From: a virus
Virus genome (UHGV): UHGV-0008619
Strand: one strand, 5' to 3'
Length of the DNA: 40,339 nucleotides
Below, in pieces: positions 340-5,962 of the stretch. Below the pieces are notes generated by a model. It made no database searches. It saw only the letters and a program-made list of their open reading frames with translations, and was not told the DNA's origin. Numbering within the stretch: the first letter of the stretch is position 1; every line of letters starts with the position of its first letter. A program made the translations under genes and the position numbers.

Positions 340-1470
340 ATGTCGCAAAGAAAAATCAGCGATGAGCAATTGATCGCTGAATACAACAACGGTTTAACGT
401 ACAAACAGATTGCTGAGAAGTACGGCATGTCAAAACGCAATGTCGAGCGCCTGGGCGCAAAACTGGCAAAACGCGGTTTATTATCAACACGCCGCGCGCC
501 TGGTTTTGGCGTCAATGGCGAGTCGTTGCTAGTCGATAAAAACGGCAATGTGATCATGCGCTGGATTAAAACAGCCCGTGACCGCGACGAAATGGAACAG
601 TTAATGGAAGCGGCCCGCGACGCTTTCACGGATGAAATACCACGCGCGGAGGCTGTGCCAGTGCCTGAAATTGATTTTCAAAAAAGCCTGGCACTTTACC
701 CGGTATTTGACCTGCATATCGGGGCGCTTGCTCATAAAGCAGAATGCGGTGAGAGCTACGATACTGGGATCGCTGAGCGCGTGTTAAATGACTTCTTTGA
801 CTACGCTGTTGGCGCTGCTCCGATGTCTGAAAAAGCCGTACTGCTCCTCGGTGGCGATCTGCTTCATTCTGACGGTATGGTCCCGGTGACGCCAATAAGC
901 GGGCACATTCTTGATCAAGATAGTCGCTACGCAAAACTTGTTTATGTGGCGATCCGGTCGGTCCGGCGGGCGGTAGGGAAGATGTTGCTAAATCATAAGG
1001 ATGTGGAAATCCAGGTGTTATCAGGGAATCATGATCAGTCTGGTATGATTTGGCTACGTGCGGCGCTTGCGGCTTTTTACGAAGATGAACCGCGCGTGAC
1101 GGTTGATGTGTCACCTACTATCGTCCACCACACGCAGTACGGGAAAACATTTCTTGCTTACCACCACGGGCACACTATCAAAAAACCGGAAAATTTATTG
1201 GCTGCTTGCGTATCTGACTGGCGCGATGATTTCGGCAAGTCGAAATATGTTTACGTCCATGTCGGACATTTGCACCATAAATCAGTAACAGAATCATCTA
1301 TAGGCATAGTTGAACACCACGGCACGTTAGCGGGCAAAGACGCTTATTCAACTAATGGAGGATGGAGATCGCAACGTTGCGCTGCGGTTATCCTTTACAG
1401 TCCTGATTATGGCGAAATTGGTCGCTTTGTATATAGGCCTGAAATGGTGGGGTGTCATGATGTGGGATGA
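340..1470 (+). CDS. HTH domain fused to calcineurin-like metallophosphoesterase (possible replication initiation/nuclease protein)
   Basis: GGAGGG RBS 9 nt upstream of ATG 340; N-terminal HTH (LTYKQIAEKYGMSKRNVERL); phosphoesterase-type motifs DLHIG, GGDLLHSDG, GNHD, GHLHH; directly upstream of helicase. Confidence 0.6.
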   Translation: MSQRKISDEQLIAEYNNGLTYKQIAEKYGMSKRNVERLGAKLAKRGLLSTRRAPGFGVNGESLLVDKNGNVIMRWIKTARDRDEMEQLMEAARDAFTDEIPRAEAVPVPEIDFQKSLALYPVFDLHIGALAHKAECGESYDTGIAERVLNDFFDYAVGAAPMSEKAVLLLGGDLLHSDGMVPVTPISGHILDQDSRYAKLVYVAIRSVRRAVGKMLLNHKDVEIQVLSGNHDQSGMIWLRAALAAFYEDEPRVTVDVSPTIVHHTQYGKTFLAYHHGHTIKKPENLLAACVSDWRDDFGKSKYVYVHVGHLHHKSVTESSIGIVEHHGTLAGKDAYSTNGGWRSQRCAAVILYSPDYGEIGRFVYRPEMVGCHDVG

Positions 1471-1963
1471 TTTGTTTACATATAGCGACGGCGTTCTATA
1501 TTGGTCTTGTAACCGTGCAAATAACAAAATAAAAGCAGGTAGCGTGGCTGGATGTAAACATTATCGCGGATATTGGACTGTACGCGTTAATGGTATTTGT
1601 TGCACATGGCGTCACCGCATTATCTGGGAAATGTTTAACGGCCCTATTCCTGATGGAATGGAAATAGATCACATAAATCATGTACCTGGTGACGATAGAA
1701 TCGAAAACTTAAGGATGGTGACAAGGAAGGAGAATAACAGAAACAAAACAATGCCATCAAGTAATACTAGCGGATGCGTTGGCGTTACGTGGAACAAGAA
1801 AACCAATAAATGGCGTGCGCAAATAGGTATAAGGGGGTCTGATGGGAAAAAGAAAACAATATACGTTTATTACGGTGACTCATTTGATGATGCCGTAAAA
1901 GCAAGAAAAGAAGCTGAAAGAATGTATAACTTTCATAGCAATCACGGTATTTCTTTACCCTGA
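1457..1963 (+). CDS. HNH homing endonuclease (HNH plus AP2-like DNA-binding region)
   Basis: ATG 1457 overlaps stop of upstream gene; motifs IKAGSVAGCKH, HRIIWEMFNGPIPDGMEIDHINHVPGDDRIENLR; paralogous to 35629..36135. Confidence 0.85.
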   Translation: MMWDDLFTYSDGVLYWSCNRANNKIKAGSVAGCKHYRGYWTVRVNGICCTWRHRIIWEMFNGPIPDGMEIDHINHVPGDDRIENLRMVTRKENNRNKTMPSSNTSGCVGVTWNKKTNKWRAQIGIRGSDGKKKTIYVYYGDSFDDAVKARKEAERMYNFHSNHGISLP

Positions 1964-1997: not shown

Positions 1998-4448
1998 ATG
2001 GTAACTGAGCAAATAAACTCACTACGGCAGGAACGTGAGGCGTCAGTTATCGGCGGGCTGCTGTTAGGCGGCCTAACTCCTAACGCGCAAGATGTTCTCG
2101 CCACGCTTGATCCTGAAGTGTTCACAATCCCGCTCTATAGACGTGCGTTTGAAGTTATCCGGGCGCAAGCCAGAAACAGGAATCTTATCGACGCGTTGCT
2201 TGTTGGCGATGAGATTGGCAATGAAAATTTCGTACCTCTAATGCAAACGGCGCGTTCGTGCCCTTCTGCTGCCAACCTGAAGGGGTACGCACAGCTACTA
2301 CGTGAAGAGCACCAGCGGCGGCAGATGTTGGAACTCATCGACGATATGCGTTACAAGCTGGAAACAGGTACGCTTGAGGTCGTCAAAGAGACGATGAAGG
2401 ATTTTGATTCCCGATATTCAAAATTAAAGGTAACGAAAGACAAGATCATTCCGGTGTTGTTGCGCGATGCGGTACAGGAATATACGGATGTTTTAAGCAA
2501 GCGCATGGAATGCGGTGTTAATTCTGACAACATCAAAACAGGTATTGACCCGCTCGATGAAATGTTAGGCGGCATTAACGCTACTGATTTGGTACTTCTC
2601 GCCGGACGCCCTGGGTCTGGTAAAGCGCTAAAAAACAGTGAAAAAATACTGCTTGAAAATGGAGAATGGACTACTCATGGCAAAGTTAAGGTTGGTGATG
2701 TCATCGCATCAATAGACGGCAAGCCCTCTGTTGTTACAGGTGTCTTTCCTCAAGGCGTTAGGGATATTTACGAAATTGAATTCGAAGACGGTAGAAAAAT
2801 TGATAGCGCTGATTGCCATTTGTGGGAAATAAGTAGTACGAAGTGGAACGCTCCACGTGTAGTCGATACTGTCGGACTTAATGATTTACTTAGCAAGGTA
2901 CGCTATCAAGGCCGTGTACATATCCCTGTTTTTGGTGGCGATTGCGGTATTGACAATAATATCGGCATTGATCCGTGGTTGCTTGGCGCTCTTATAGGTG
3001 ATGGTTGCTTATCACATAGTGGCGTAAGTATTAGCTGCGGTCAGGATTACATACTTAACCGCGTTAAACTTACTTGCTGCGATCTTGATGTTAAGCGAAT
3101 TGGTAGTAATCAATATGATTACCGCATTACTGCAAAAGGAAGAGGATGCAAAAACCATCTGATCGATGCGCTTGGTAAAATGGGGCTTTATGGTAAGCAT
3201 TCATGGGAAAAATTTATTCCGGATATTATTTATTCATCAAGTAAAAATATCAGGCTGGGCGTGCTCGTTGGGCTACTTGAAACTGATGGTTGGATTGAAA
3301 AAAAAGGGAGTTTGTATTATGCGTCATGTAGCAAATCGTTAACAAACGATGTGATTCGTCTTGCTAGATCACTTGGCGGGTGCGGGCACATGAGAGTAAA
3401 AAATAATGTTACTTTCTCATACAAGGGAGAAAAAAGAATTGGTAGGGATTCTTATATTGCGACGTTAAAACTTCCTGACTGGGTTTTAGCAAAAATAGAA
3501 CACCCTCGTCTAAAATCAAGATTACCAGAAAACAGGATGTATAAACACGGATTGCAAATTAAATCAGTTACGTTTAAAGGTAAGGAGGAATGCACATGTA
3601 TTATGGTTAGCCATGATAGTCACCTTTATATTACTTCTGACTATATCGTTACACATAATACATCTCTTGCATTAAAGATAGCTCAACAAGCTGCTATGCG
3701 CCCATATCCAGGCATGGAAGGTCAGCGGGTAGGCGTTTTGCTGTTTACGCTTGAAATGTCACTCGATCAGATGACTGAGCGTGCTATAGCTGGCGCTGGC
3801 AATTTATCAACTGACTGCCTGCGCAATCCGGTAAAACTTGATGATGAGGGGTGGGCGCATGTCGGCCAGGGTATGAGCGCACTTGCTAATCTTGATGTGT
3901 GGATCGTTGACGCGTCGCAGTTAACGGTTGAGGAAATACGCGCAACAACGGAACGCATGAAACAGGATCACCCAAATTTGGGTATGGTAATGATTGACTA
4001 TATCGGTTTAATGAAGCTGGCTAAAGCCGAACGTCACGATCTCGCCGTGGGGCAATTATCGTGGTCGTTAAAGATGATGGCGAAAGAATTGCGCGTACCA
4101 GTGTTGGCACTGGCGCAATTATCACGCCGAGTTGAGGAACGACCGAACAAGCGCCCTAACAATTCTGATCTTCGTGATTCTGGCAACCTTGAGCAAGATG
4201 CCGACAGGATCATCATGGTTTACCGCGATGGGTATTACGACGAACAGTCTGTTGCCCGCGAATATATGGAAATCATTGTGTCAAAAAACCGTCATGGTAA
4301 GTCTGGAACTGTTTACCAGCGGTTTGATGACAACGGTAATATCTTGCCATGCGACCAGGCTCGCGCAGCCGCCGCGTGTATTCAGTCAATGAATCATCGC
4401 ACAAGCCGTTTTAACCAACGAAACAATCAGAATAACACATCTTTTTAA
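1998..4448 (+). CDS. DnaB-like replicative helicase, intein-containing
   Basis: GGAGG RBS; Walker A GRPGSGK interrupted and resumed as TSLALKIA; downstream helicase motifs FTLEMS, DYIGLM, NRHGKSG; 816 aa because of a 345 aa insertion. Confidence 0.9.
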   Translation: MVTEQINSLRQEREASVIGGLLLGGLTPNAQDVLATLDPEVFTIPLYRRAFEVIRAQARNRNLIDALLVGDEIGNENFVPLMQTARSCPSAANLKGYAQLLREEHQRRQMLELIDDMRYKLETGTLEVVKETMKDFDSRYSKLKVTKDKIIPVLLRDAVQEYTDVLSKRMECGVNSDNIKTGIDPLDEMLGGINATDLVLLAGRPGSGKALKNSEKILLENGEWTTHGKVKVGDVIASIDGKPSVVTGVFPQGVRDIYEIEFEDGRKIDSADCHLWEISSTKWNAPRVVDTVGLNDLLSKVRYQGRVHIPVFGGDCGIDNNIGIDPWLLGALIGDGCLSHSGVSISCGQDYILNRVKLTCCDLDVKRIGSNQYDYRITAKGRGCKNHLIDALGKMGLYGKHSWEKFIPDIIYSSSKNIRLGVLVGLLETDGWIEKKGSLYYASCSKSLTNDVIRLARSLGGCGHMRVKNNVTFSYKGEKRIGRDSYIATLKLPDWVLAKIEHPRLKSRLPENRMYKHGLQIKSVTFKGKEECTCIMVSHDSHLYITSDYIVTHNTSLALKIAQQAAMRPYPGMEGQRVGVLLFTLEMSLDQMTERAIAGAGNLSTDCLRNPVKLDDEGWAHVGQGMSALANLDVWIVDASQLTVEEIRATTERMKQDHPNLGMVMIDYIGLMKLAKAERHDLAVGQLSWSLKMMAKELRVPVLALAQLSRRVEERPNKRPNNSDLRDSGNLEQDADRIIMVYRDGYYDEQSVAREYMEIIVSKNRHGKSGTVYQRFDDNGNILPCDQARAAAACIQSMNHRTSRFNQRNNQNNTSF
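2625..3659 (+). mobile_element. Intein with LAGLIDADG homing endonuclease domain inserted in helicase P-loop
   Basis: Insertion between GSGK and T of Walker A; two LAGLIDADG-type motifs (LLGALIGDGCL, LVGLLETDGWI); ends THN followed by Thr +1; starts with Ala not Cys/Ser. Confidence 0.8.
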
Positions 4449-4524
4449 TTAATCTGAGCAAACGGCTTACCGGAAAGTTTACCGCTTTCTGGTGGCTGTT
4501 ATCGCGTTTTAAACGAGGCTAAAA

Positions 4525-5082
4525 ATGAGCGCTGAAATTGAAACAAAAATTATCAATATCCTTGAACTTGATGGCATCGCAACAATGCACCAGTTACGCC
4601 AGAAAACAGGGTTATTGGCTTGGTATGATAAGGACGGAATCATGCCTGAGACAATTAAACACTTAATAAAAAACGGCATCGTCGAGCGCGTGTATACATG
4701 TTTTGGACGCCGCCGCCGCCTGCTGGGTTATCGCATTAAACAGTTATATGCTGAACGTCGTGAGCGTGTTGCGTCGTTATTTGGTGACTACAGCGTTAAA
4801 AAACGTATGCGCGACATTAGCGCTGAAACGGGAATACCGTGGAATTATCTTTCTCGTACTATGCGTTTAATGGTGATTGATGAAACGCTTTGCGTTGATC
4901 CAAATAGACACGGGGTTAATTTTTACTCACTGTTTAAACCTGGGCGATTCGGTCACGCCAATGATCTGGCGTTTGACTTTGATAGCCGCCTGAACGAATA
5001 CCGGAAAAATAATGGCTTGTTGCCGGATAAACCAGTATTTGAAATAGAAAAACTTAACGGTGAAACGGGGTTGGAATTATGA
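4525..5082 (+). CDS. hypothetical protein
   Basis: 185 aa ORF with GAGG RBS upstream of ATG 4525; no recognisable motif. Confidence 0.55.
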   Translation: MSAEIETKIINILELDGIATMHQLRQKTGLLAWYDKDGIMPETIKHLIKNGIVERVYTCFGRRRRLLGYRIKQLYAERRERVASLFGDYSVKKRMRDISAETGIPWNYLSRTMRLMVIDETLCVDPNRHGVNFYSLFKPGRFGHANDLAFDFDSRLNEYRKNNGLLPDKPVFEIEKLNGETGLEL

Positions 5083-5523: not shown

Positions 5524-5962
5524 ATTTGAAATAGTAAACGACGCCGTAAAAGAAAACGCTATCAGGCAGATAAGGGAAATCCATCCTGATGACAAAAGCC
5601 CGCTGATAATTACCATCCAGGAGAAAACACGATCACTGAGTCAAAACAGCCTTTTATGGGCGCTATTAACAGACGTTAGCGATCAGGTTAATTGGTACGG
5701 TAAAAAGCTGTCACCGGAAGACTGGAAGGCGGTATTCACTGCCGGGCTTAAGAAATATGGCGTTGTCCCTAATCTGGATAAATCAGGTTTTGTTGTGCTG
5801 GGTACGTCAACCAGCCGGATGAGTAAAGCAGAATTTAGCGAATTAATCGAACTGATCTACTCGTTCGGTGCGGAACATGGTGTTCAGTGGTCTGGCGATA
5901 CGAAGTTAAACGAGGAATTTATAAAACGCTGGGGCAATAATGGTTCGTTATTACATGGCTAA
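5510..5962 (+). CDS. ninB: NinB/Orf-family recombination protein
   Basis: Protein MRQIRFEIVNDAVKENAIRQIREIHPDD...ITIQEKTRSLSQNSLLWALLTDVS matches the lambda NinB N-terminus pattern recalled from memory. Confidence 0.8.
   Translation: MRQIRFEIVNDAVKENAIRQIREIHPDDKSPLIITIQEKTRSLSQNSLLWALLTDVSDQVNWYGKKLSPEDWKAVFTAGLKKYGVVPNLDKSGFVVLGTSTSRMSKAEFSELIELIYSFGAEHGVQWSGDTKLNEEFIKRWGNNGSLLHG

Follow-up and report, generated by a model that had tools for sequence, protein, structure and literature searches.

Class 3 inteins are defined by a non-nucleophilic residue at position 1 together with the WCT triplet, which consists of a Trp at B:12, a Cys at F:4 and a Thr at G:5 (PMC2807308; also PMC3196547, PMC7664689). 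At the P-loop of DnaB, known as site b, the characterised class 3 inteins are those of the mycobacterial chromosomal DnaB proteins (PMC6195587, PMC7664689). For the intein of phage Bethlehem, the prototype of the class, splicing via the block F Cys (PMC2807308) as well as DNA cleavage (PMC5050341) have been shown. Here, we describe an insert of 1035 nt in the gene of a DnaB-like replicative helicase on the virus genome UHGV-0008619, a stretch of 40,339 nt which is referred to as the window in the following. This insert is very probably a mobile intein of class 3, equipped with a LAGLIDADG homing endonuclease, which splits the Walker A motif of a phage helicase between its Lys and the adjacent Thr; protein splicing and DNA cleavage are activities that we infer for it from comparison with its relatives.

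Position and boundaries of the insert

The helicase is encoded on the plus strand at positions 1998..4448 and, by the reading of its open reading frame, these 2451 nt form one uninterrupted frame of 816 aa. The N-extein (1998..2624, plus strand) comprises the DnaB N-terminal domain (Pfam DnaB, PF00772, E = 7.5e-12; residues 11-103) and the start of the ATPase domain. It ends with the Walker A sequence GRPGSGK, encoded by codons 2604-2624 with Lys-1 at 2622-2624. The next codon (2625-2627) specifies Ala and opens the intein of 345 aa (1035 nt; 2625..3659, plus strand), which runs from Ala1 to Asn345 and is closed by V-T-H-N at 3648-3659. From 3660 on, the DNA reads T-S-L-A-L-K-I-A. This is the start of the C-extein (3660..4448, plus strand), which opens with Thr+1 (3660-3662) and continues through the remaining part of the RecA-like ATPase domain to the stop codon. 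Pfam DnaB_C (E = 2.5e-69) finds the ATPase domain split into two stretches, the main one covering residues 544-778. The GK[ST] signature of Walker A is completed after the intein, by the Thr+1 codon. The delimitation of the intein draws on its precise absence from the 40 closest helicase alleles, on homology to class 3 inteins and on an AlphaFold2 model.

The genome of this phage is mEp021-like (85-89% DNA identity, mosaic coverage), and the relatives of its helicase are informative. A megablast search of GenBank phages revealed an intein-less helicase in six temperate E. coli phages of the mEp021 group, namely mEp554, mEp044, mEp010, mEp515, mEp021 and mEp013. In each of them, the match to the gene falls into two parts that make up 56% of the query. 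Their gene has 1416 nt, which equals 2451 minus 1035, and its flanks align base-for-base on either side of the insert. Furthermore, all 34 matching prophage alleles found in 5426 complete E. coli genomes are without the intein, so that an in-frame insertion is precisely absent from 6 phage and 34 prophage alleles. Outside the insert, the helicase protein is 97% identical to that of mEp554, and within the N-extein 207 of 209 residues are the same. On protein level, mEp554 reads GRPGSGK/SALALTIA, and the window reads GRPGSGK, 345 aa of insert, and TSLALKIA. In the DNA of the mEp554 and mEp021 helicases, the empty insertion point lies between GGACGCCCTGGGTCTGGTAAA and TCTGCGTTGGCGCTGACAATTGCC.

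An earlier note on this DNA, made from the letters alone, had described a Walker A motif split by a 345-aa insert at 2625..3659 and had proposed that intein-free DnaB homologues be used to confirm its ends. Both the coordinates and the length proved exact when the DNA was read, and the empty alleles fix the junctions at K/A and N/T. The note had also stated that homologues carrying the same 345 aa as an integral domain would speak against an intein. Such homologues were looked for and ruled out, as the nearest alleles lack exactly the 1035 nt.

The splicing domain and the class 3 assignment

The splicing domain is encoded in two parts, both on the plus strand. The N-terminal HINT subdomain with blocks A and B (2625..2954, its boundary near residue 110 being approximate) aligns to residues 13-71 of MchDnaB1 (6rix) with H and W matched. 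By DNA reading and alignment, it harbors Ala1 (2625-2627), His65 (B:10, 2817-2819) and Trp67 (B:12, 2823-2825), the latter two within the CHLW motif formed by C64, H65, L66 and W67 (2814-2825). The C-terminal HINT subdomain with blocks F and G (3540..3659) was placed by the family alignment and aligns to the ...rC...THN part of 6rix. Here, the ECTC motif (residues 322-325) contains Cys323 (F:2, 3591-3593) and Cys325 (F:4, 3597-3599), the predicted initiating nucleophile, and Thr343-His344-Asn345 (3651-3659) represent blocks G:5 and G:6-7.

Among the sequences of the PDB, the insert is best matched by the class 3 inteins MchDnaB1 (6rix, 6riy) and MsmDnaBi1 (6bs8), with E = 6.9e-7 for 6rix, followed by PI-PfuI, which matches the middle domain. 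In the alignment to 6rix, His65 and Trp67 fall on H-Q-W, and Cys325 and the terminal Thr-His-Asn on C...T-H-N.

The conservation of these residues was followed in a family alignment of 45 sequences, comprising the window intein, 42 full-length homologues from a collection of 5.8 billion proteins, and the inteins of the Stx2a phages and of Bethlehem. His65 at B:10, Thr343 at G:5 and His344-Asn345 at G:6-7 are present in all 45 members, Cys325 at F:4 in 44 and Trp67 at B:12 in 42. Position -1, a Lys in the window, is Lys in 39/45; position 1 is Ala, as in the window, in 35/45 and another non-nucleophilic residue in 7/45; position +1 is Thr, again as in the window, in 40 members and Ser in the other five. 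In block F, a C-x-C arrangement is frequent, since Cys323 at F:2 (32/45) accompanies the catalytic Cys325. Another Cys, four residues before the block B His, is conserved in 37/45; the window has Ser there, and its Cys64 adjoins His65.

The window intein thus begins with a non-nucleophilic residue, Ala1, and its WCT triplet of Trp67, Cys325 and Thr343 coincides in the alignments with that of both MchDnaB1 and the Bethlehem intein. The block B His and a hydroxyl residue at +1 are in place as well. The general hallmarks of an intein, a HINT fold with a C-terminal His-Asn and a nucleophilic +1 residue, are found in the AlphaFold2 model and in the alignment. The motifs that the earlier note had named (CHLW, two LAGLIDADG-type motifs, the block-F Cys in ECTC, the THN end, Ala1 and Thr+1) all stand at the places it gave. 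Its assignment to class 3 (WCT) appears sound, as all signature residues are present and conserved throughout a family homologous to proven class 3 inteins.

The endonuclease domain and the predicted fold

Between the two HINT parts, a LAGLIDADG homing endonuclease domain is predicted at 2955..3539 (plus strand, boundaries approximate) from Pfam LAGLIDADG_3, conservation and fold match; the Pfam score of 23.0 bits is just over the cut-off of 22.5. On the same strand, motif 1, LLGALIGDG with Asp126, is encoded at 2979-3005, Lys196 of the block D sequence K-F-I-P at 3210-3212, and motif 2, VLVGLLETDG with Asp221, at 3261-3290. In the family alignment, Asp/Glu126 and Gly127 are conserved in 45/45, and in a second alignment of 45 sequences (A3) Lys196 of the K-x-I-P block D, Asp221 and Gly222 are invariant.

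An AlphaFold2 model of the intein, computed on a 45-sequence alignment, reached a mean predicted local distance difference test score (pLDDT) of 95.0 and a predicted template modeling score (pTM) of 0.92. Compared with the PDB by Foldseek, it ranks PI-SceI first (E = 1e-17; query-side TM-score, TMq, 0.72-0.74), followed by the TliVMA and PhoVMA inteins and PI-PfuI (TMq 0.64, E = 2.8e-11). The HINT part of the model matches class 3 mini-inteins, with target-side TM-scores (TMt) of 0.88 for 6bs8 and 0.82 for 6riy, and the endonuclease part matches I-DmoI and I-OnuI. The features of a LAGLIDADG enzyme are therefore all present, namely two motifs with acidic residues, the block D Lys and an alpha-beta-beta-alpha-beta-beta-alpha pseudo-dimer fold. 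The two-motif endonuclease which had been read from the letters is in this way well supported by retained residues and modeled fold, and it would probably cleave DNA.

Traces of recent mobility

The intein differs in composition from the gene around it. Its GC content is 39.5%, and 31.6% at third codon positions (GC3), compared with 48.5-49.3% and 48-52% in the exteins. Directly downstream lies a foreign 3' flank (3660..3745, plus strand, end approximate), recognised by clustered mismatches against three intein-less alleles. The first 60 nt 3' of the insertion contain 28-29 mismatches (52-53% identity); elsewhere, 0-9 are found per 60-nt bin, with 1-2 in the 60 nt directly upstream of the insertion, and the spliced extein DNA as a whole differs by 5.6-8.1% from these alleles. 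In the protein, the flank is visible against mEp554 as a cluster, TSLALKIAQQAAMRPYPGMEG vs SALALTIARAAAERPYPGSKD. The simplest reading is that it represents a co-conversion tract from a diverged donor helicase, dating from the original invasion. A helicase of the Stx2a type was considered as donor of this tract and rejected, as the flank is no closer to it than to the mEp alleles (50% vs 52% over 60 nt). The older foreign 3' tract and the low GC content point to a donor not yet sampled.

A second and younger trace is provided by the ENA metagenome scaffold RAMP15-1 scaffold_389 (L004), which carries the gene with 95% overall identity. The N-extein of L004 shows 40 mismatches in 627 nt (6.4%), the last one at 2609. 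A mismatch-free tract follows at 2610..3943 (plus strand), comprising the intein and 284 nt of the 3' extein; a gap in the L004 scaffold lies opposite 2929-3033, so that the intein parts compared are 2625-2928 and 3034-3659. At 3944 the mismatches restart at about 8%. In its N-extein, L004 shares 98.2% identity with the intein-less allele of E. coli strain 190, as against 93.6% with the window. At a divergence of 6.6%, the chance of zero differences over the approximately 1214 aligned nt is about 1e-36. Since an identical intein is found in two diverged helicase backgrounds, it has evidently been transferred between helicase alleles in recent times. On the 5' side, the exchange took place less than 16 nt from the intein junction, and the 3' tract extends over about 285 nt. 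As judged from this alignment, co-conversion is sharply asymmetric, as it includes no more than 15 nt 5' of the intein, compared with about 285 nt 3' of it.

Inside its intein, L004 contains a 74-nt inverted piece and a run of 10 N (5828..5925). The calling of its helicase as two proteins of 312 and 480 aa was traced to this scaffolding artefact and not to a frameshift. Downstream of the helicase stop, after the distal segment of about 8% divergence, the identity is back to about 99% (window 4467..4650 vs L004 7365..7548). This return apparently reflects the mosaic recombination that is common in these phages and comes in addition to the tract centred on the intein.

Proposed splicing and homing

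For the sequence of reactions, we follow studies of homologues (PMC2807308, PMC6195587, PMC7664689). The 91-kDa precursor would be unable to bind ATP properly before the intein has removed itself. Since Ala1 is not a nucleophile, Cys325 (F:4) would attack the peptide bond between Lys-1 and Ala1, activated by His65 and with Trp67 and Thr343 in positioning roles, which would result in a thioester branched intermediate. The N-extein would then be passed to the hydroxyl of Thr+1. Cyclisation of Asn345, assisted by His344, would release the intein-endonuclease of 38.5 kDa, and an O-to-N shift would rebuild the P-loop GRPGSGKT in a helicase of 52.8 kDa. Thr+1 is both the splicing nucleophile and the Mg2+-binding Walker A Thr. 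This 'classic' P-loop arrangement, in which the nucleophile is a Walker A residue, has been described for other inteins (PMC5050341, PMC6195587).

On DNA level, the freed endonuclease would cut intein-less helicase alleles at the site coding for the P-loop, and repair from an intein-bearing copy would convert the cut allele and carry along sequence of the 3' flank. The class 3 route of splicing and the cleavage by the endonuclease are proposed by analogy to homologues, and the homing model is suggested by the comparative traces given above.

Weighing the interpretation

Several points weigh against a functional, mobile class 3 intein. The Pfam Hint models stay below their cut-off (Hom_end_hint, 16 bits vs 32). 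In block B, position 61 carries Ser61 in the window, where the family consensus is Cys (37/45), and a Cys is found at 64. The splicing mechanism is transferred from homologues which are 25-30% identical in the splicing domain, and the tract identical to L004 could in principle stem from ordinary mosaic recombination and not from endonuclease-driven homing. Furthermore, all intein-bearing contigs are metagenomic, which does not imply a viable phage, and an inactive class 3-like intein without the F:4 Cys, Arsp-FB24, is on record in a prophage remnant (PMC3196547).

Some of these points lead to the alternative that survives best, a decayed or inactive intein. It would be either a non-splicing relic which, together with a dead helicase, resides in a defective prophage, or an element with a dead endonuclease that is inherited only vertically. 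The Arsp-FB24 case (PMC3196547) and the origin of every copy from metagenome assemblies would fit such a relic, and so would the rarity of the allele: the intein DNA is without megablast match in the 5426 complete E. coli genomes, and the exact 32-nt pattern of the 3' junction is without match in IMG/VR, the GTDB representative genomes and the JGI metagenomes. However, the catalytic residues of both activities are all intact, the reading frame of 2451 nt is uninterrupted, and the window intein, unlike the inactive one on record, possesses the F:4 Cys. An exact-protein look-up found the 816-aa protein on three further ENA metagenome contigs, and its reading frame is intact there. The DNA of two of these contigs was compared with the window and matches it without any difference over 7.4 kb, and one of them is a scaffold of 53.7 kb, the size of a complete mEp021-type genome. 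An intact frame on the further contigs fits a functional precursor that would splice. An identical intein in two diverged helicase alleles requires recent transfer. Decay is therefore considered unlikely, and a functional mobile intein is preferred.

Considerably less likely still is an intein of another class, either class 2, i.e. KlbA-like with the +1 residue directly attacking the N-terminal junction, or class 1 with its true start at a nearby Ser. In favor of the former, Ala1 also occurs in the class 2 KlbA inteins (PMC2807308). Class 2, however, is the archaeal KlbA group with Cys+1 and without WCT (PMC2807308, PMC7664689), whereas the window intein has Thr+1, contains the W, C and T and resides in a DnaB host, so that it does not have the features of the KlbA type. 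The nearest relatives of solved structure belong to class 3. A class 1 start is contradicted by the empty alleles, which fix the boundaries at K/A and N/T and leave no Ser or Cys as residue 1.

A permanent, non-excised helicase domain, or an in-frame fusion of a free-standing endonuclease gene, can practically be dismissed: the continuous reading frame is all that speaks for it, whereas the P-loop is split between Lys and Thr, 40 of the 40 nearest alleles precisely lack the insert, unrelated ATPases harbor this module too, invariably at GK/[ST], and the modeled HINT fold has its two termini close together, as in splicing inteins.

Distribution of the intein family

A tblastn search with the 345 aa of the insert revealed homologues in 809 phage records, 732 of which cover at least 80% of the query, with E values down to 5e-96. 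These records include about 150 Salmonella, 49 Stx2a-converting, 45 Klebsiella and 17 Escherichia phages, and the Jersey-like phages of Salmonella are annotated with an 'intein-containing helicase'. An intein in the replication protein of Stx phages was already reported in 2012 for the primase-helicase of phi24B/Min27 (PMC3430580). The earlier note had called inteins uncommon in enterobacterial phages. For this intein family, this does not hold in view of the records just listed and of a 48%-identical intein at the same helicase site in Stx2a phages and in 30 of the 5426 E. coli genomes. InBase has listed helicase inteins of SETP3-type Salmonella phages and a primase intein of Enterobacteria phage Min27.

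The genes that host these homologues encode helicases, terminases, PhoH, DarB-like proteins and others. The same intein family is found in the P-loops of DnaB, PhoH, AAA_30 and AAA_24 proteins as well as in terminases, which suggests that it hops between the P-loops of unrelated ATPases. Most of the close metagenome homologues lie outside DnaB, in PhoH-like (PF02562), AAA_30/AAA_19 and AAA_24 ATPases, and in 39/45 family members the insertion directly follows the Walker A Lys. The unusual N-terminus of the window intein, ALKNSE, is shared by a few of these homologues (P0018, P0020). PHROG and NCBIfam matches of the insert fall inside intein-bearing models of primase, terminase, RecA and GyrA, as is expected of a mobile intein common to unrelated hosts.

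In the collections searched (GenBank phages and the 5.8-billion-protein collection), no other sequence reaches 50% identity to the intein. It is new to the mEp021 phage group, and the kind of element is well known.

A neighbouring homing endonuclease gene

Upstream of the helicase, between it and a gene for a 376-aa protein, a free-standing homing endonuclease gene with HNH_3 and AP2 domains is located at 1355..1963 (plus strand); the gene call in L008 starts later and gives 168 aa. This gene is optional. It is absent in mEp554 and in the prophage of E. coli 190, where 18 nt separate the flanking genes, it is 92% identical in mEp010, and L004 has a different HNH gene (40% identical). As mover of the intein it was rejected, since in L004 it is this different HNH gene that stands beside the identical intein. 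The helicase locus therefore hosts two independent selfish endonuclease elements.

Implications

The window contains a full-length class 3 intein with endonuclease at the DnaB P-loop, where the structurally characterised ones are mini-inteins, and this copy displays unusually clear traces of recent spread. As E. coli K-12 supports the growth of relatives with an empty site, such as mEp021 and mEp554, splicing and homing of a class 3 intein could here be followed in vivo in E. coli, which would be a first. The element offers a convenient natural system to measure both processes in vivo and leaves the current picture of inteins unchanged.

For annotation, recognition of the intein gives the correct mature helicase of 471 aa; in public records, the protein is called 'DNA helicase' or is split into two. 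The Stx2a phage LC487996 (L002, 1898..4291) is an example of the former, its intein not being annotated as such. For the RefSeq E. coli genomes H146-H153, the matching region is annotated with two separate products, a 'DnaB-like helicase N-terminal domain-containing protein' as well as its 'C-terminal domain-containing protein' counterpart. This suggests that the helicase gene of the Stx2a type is systematically split or mis-annotated. In a literature search, no paper describing the helicase intein of the Stx2a phages was found.

A conditional switch on phage replication, i.e. redox- or metal-gated splicing of the sole replicative helicase, is an idea that we regard as doubtful. For the mycobacterial class 3 inteins of the DnaB P-loop, a reversible block has been described both with zinc and upon oxidation, the latter through a disulfide in which the block F Cys takes part (PMC6195587, PMC7360933). 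By analogy, the conserved cysteines of the family near the active site may be relevant to redox or zinc control of splicing. If this were true, conditional splicing in a temperate phage would tie lytic replication to the state of the host.

Comparison with known inteins

By whole structure, PI-SceI (the VMA1 intein) and PI-PfuI are the best matches, sharing the two-domain layout of HINT and LAGLIDADG. They differ in being class 1 inteins with a Cys1 or Ser1 nucleophile and without the WCT triplet, and they are 14-16% identical to the window intein.

In tblastn, the Bethlehem 'DnaB' (TerL1-c) intein is a full-length homologue (E = 2e-12, 25.7% identity), and it likewise has a LAGLIDADG endonuclease. 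Its sequence contains ...SHGW..., ...VKCIGI... and ...ILTHN/T, and its WCT, HN and Thr+1 align with those of the window intein. It has Pro1, an actinobacterial host and a place in the large terminase, not in the P-loop or in DnaB. The statement of the earlier note that class 3 inteins are known at the DnaB P-loop site in mycobacteriophages therefore needs correction: the 'MP-Be DnaB' intein resides in the large terminase of Bethlehem (gp11 in GenBank; gp10/TerL1-c in PMC5050341), and the DnaB-like gp62 of this phage is without intein.

By site and class, the nearest of the characterised relatives are the mycobacterial site-b inteins (M. smegmatis MsmDnaBi1, 6bs8; M. chimaera MchDnaB1, 6rix/6riy; M. 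leprae DnaB). They share with the window intein the DnaB host family and the Walker A site before Ser/Thr. They likewise possess Ala1, the WCT triplet, the His-Asn end and a hydroxyl residue at +1, and their HINT fold agrees with the model (TMt 0.82-0.88). Identity does not extend beyond about 60 residues in the N-terminal subdomain plus blocks F and G. They are endonuclease-less mini-inteins with Ser+1 in the chromosomal dnaB. In contrast, the window intein has a complete LAGLIDADG domain and Thr+1 and belongs to a temperate enterobacterial phage.

The closest relative by sequence is the allelic intein in the helicase of the Stx2a-converting phages (for example LC487996, BBL33594; E. coli O157:H7 prophages); 49 phage records and 30 of the 5426 complete E. 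coli genomes contain it. It occupies the same site, reading ARPGMGK/A...VTHN/T, and has the same architecture with 339 instead of 345 aa, Ala1, HLW, ECxCIMV and VTHN at 48-49% full-length identity. It belongs to another helicase lineage, with exteins 53-59% identical, and is followed by other 3' flank DNA.

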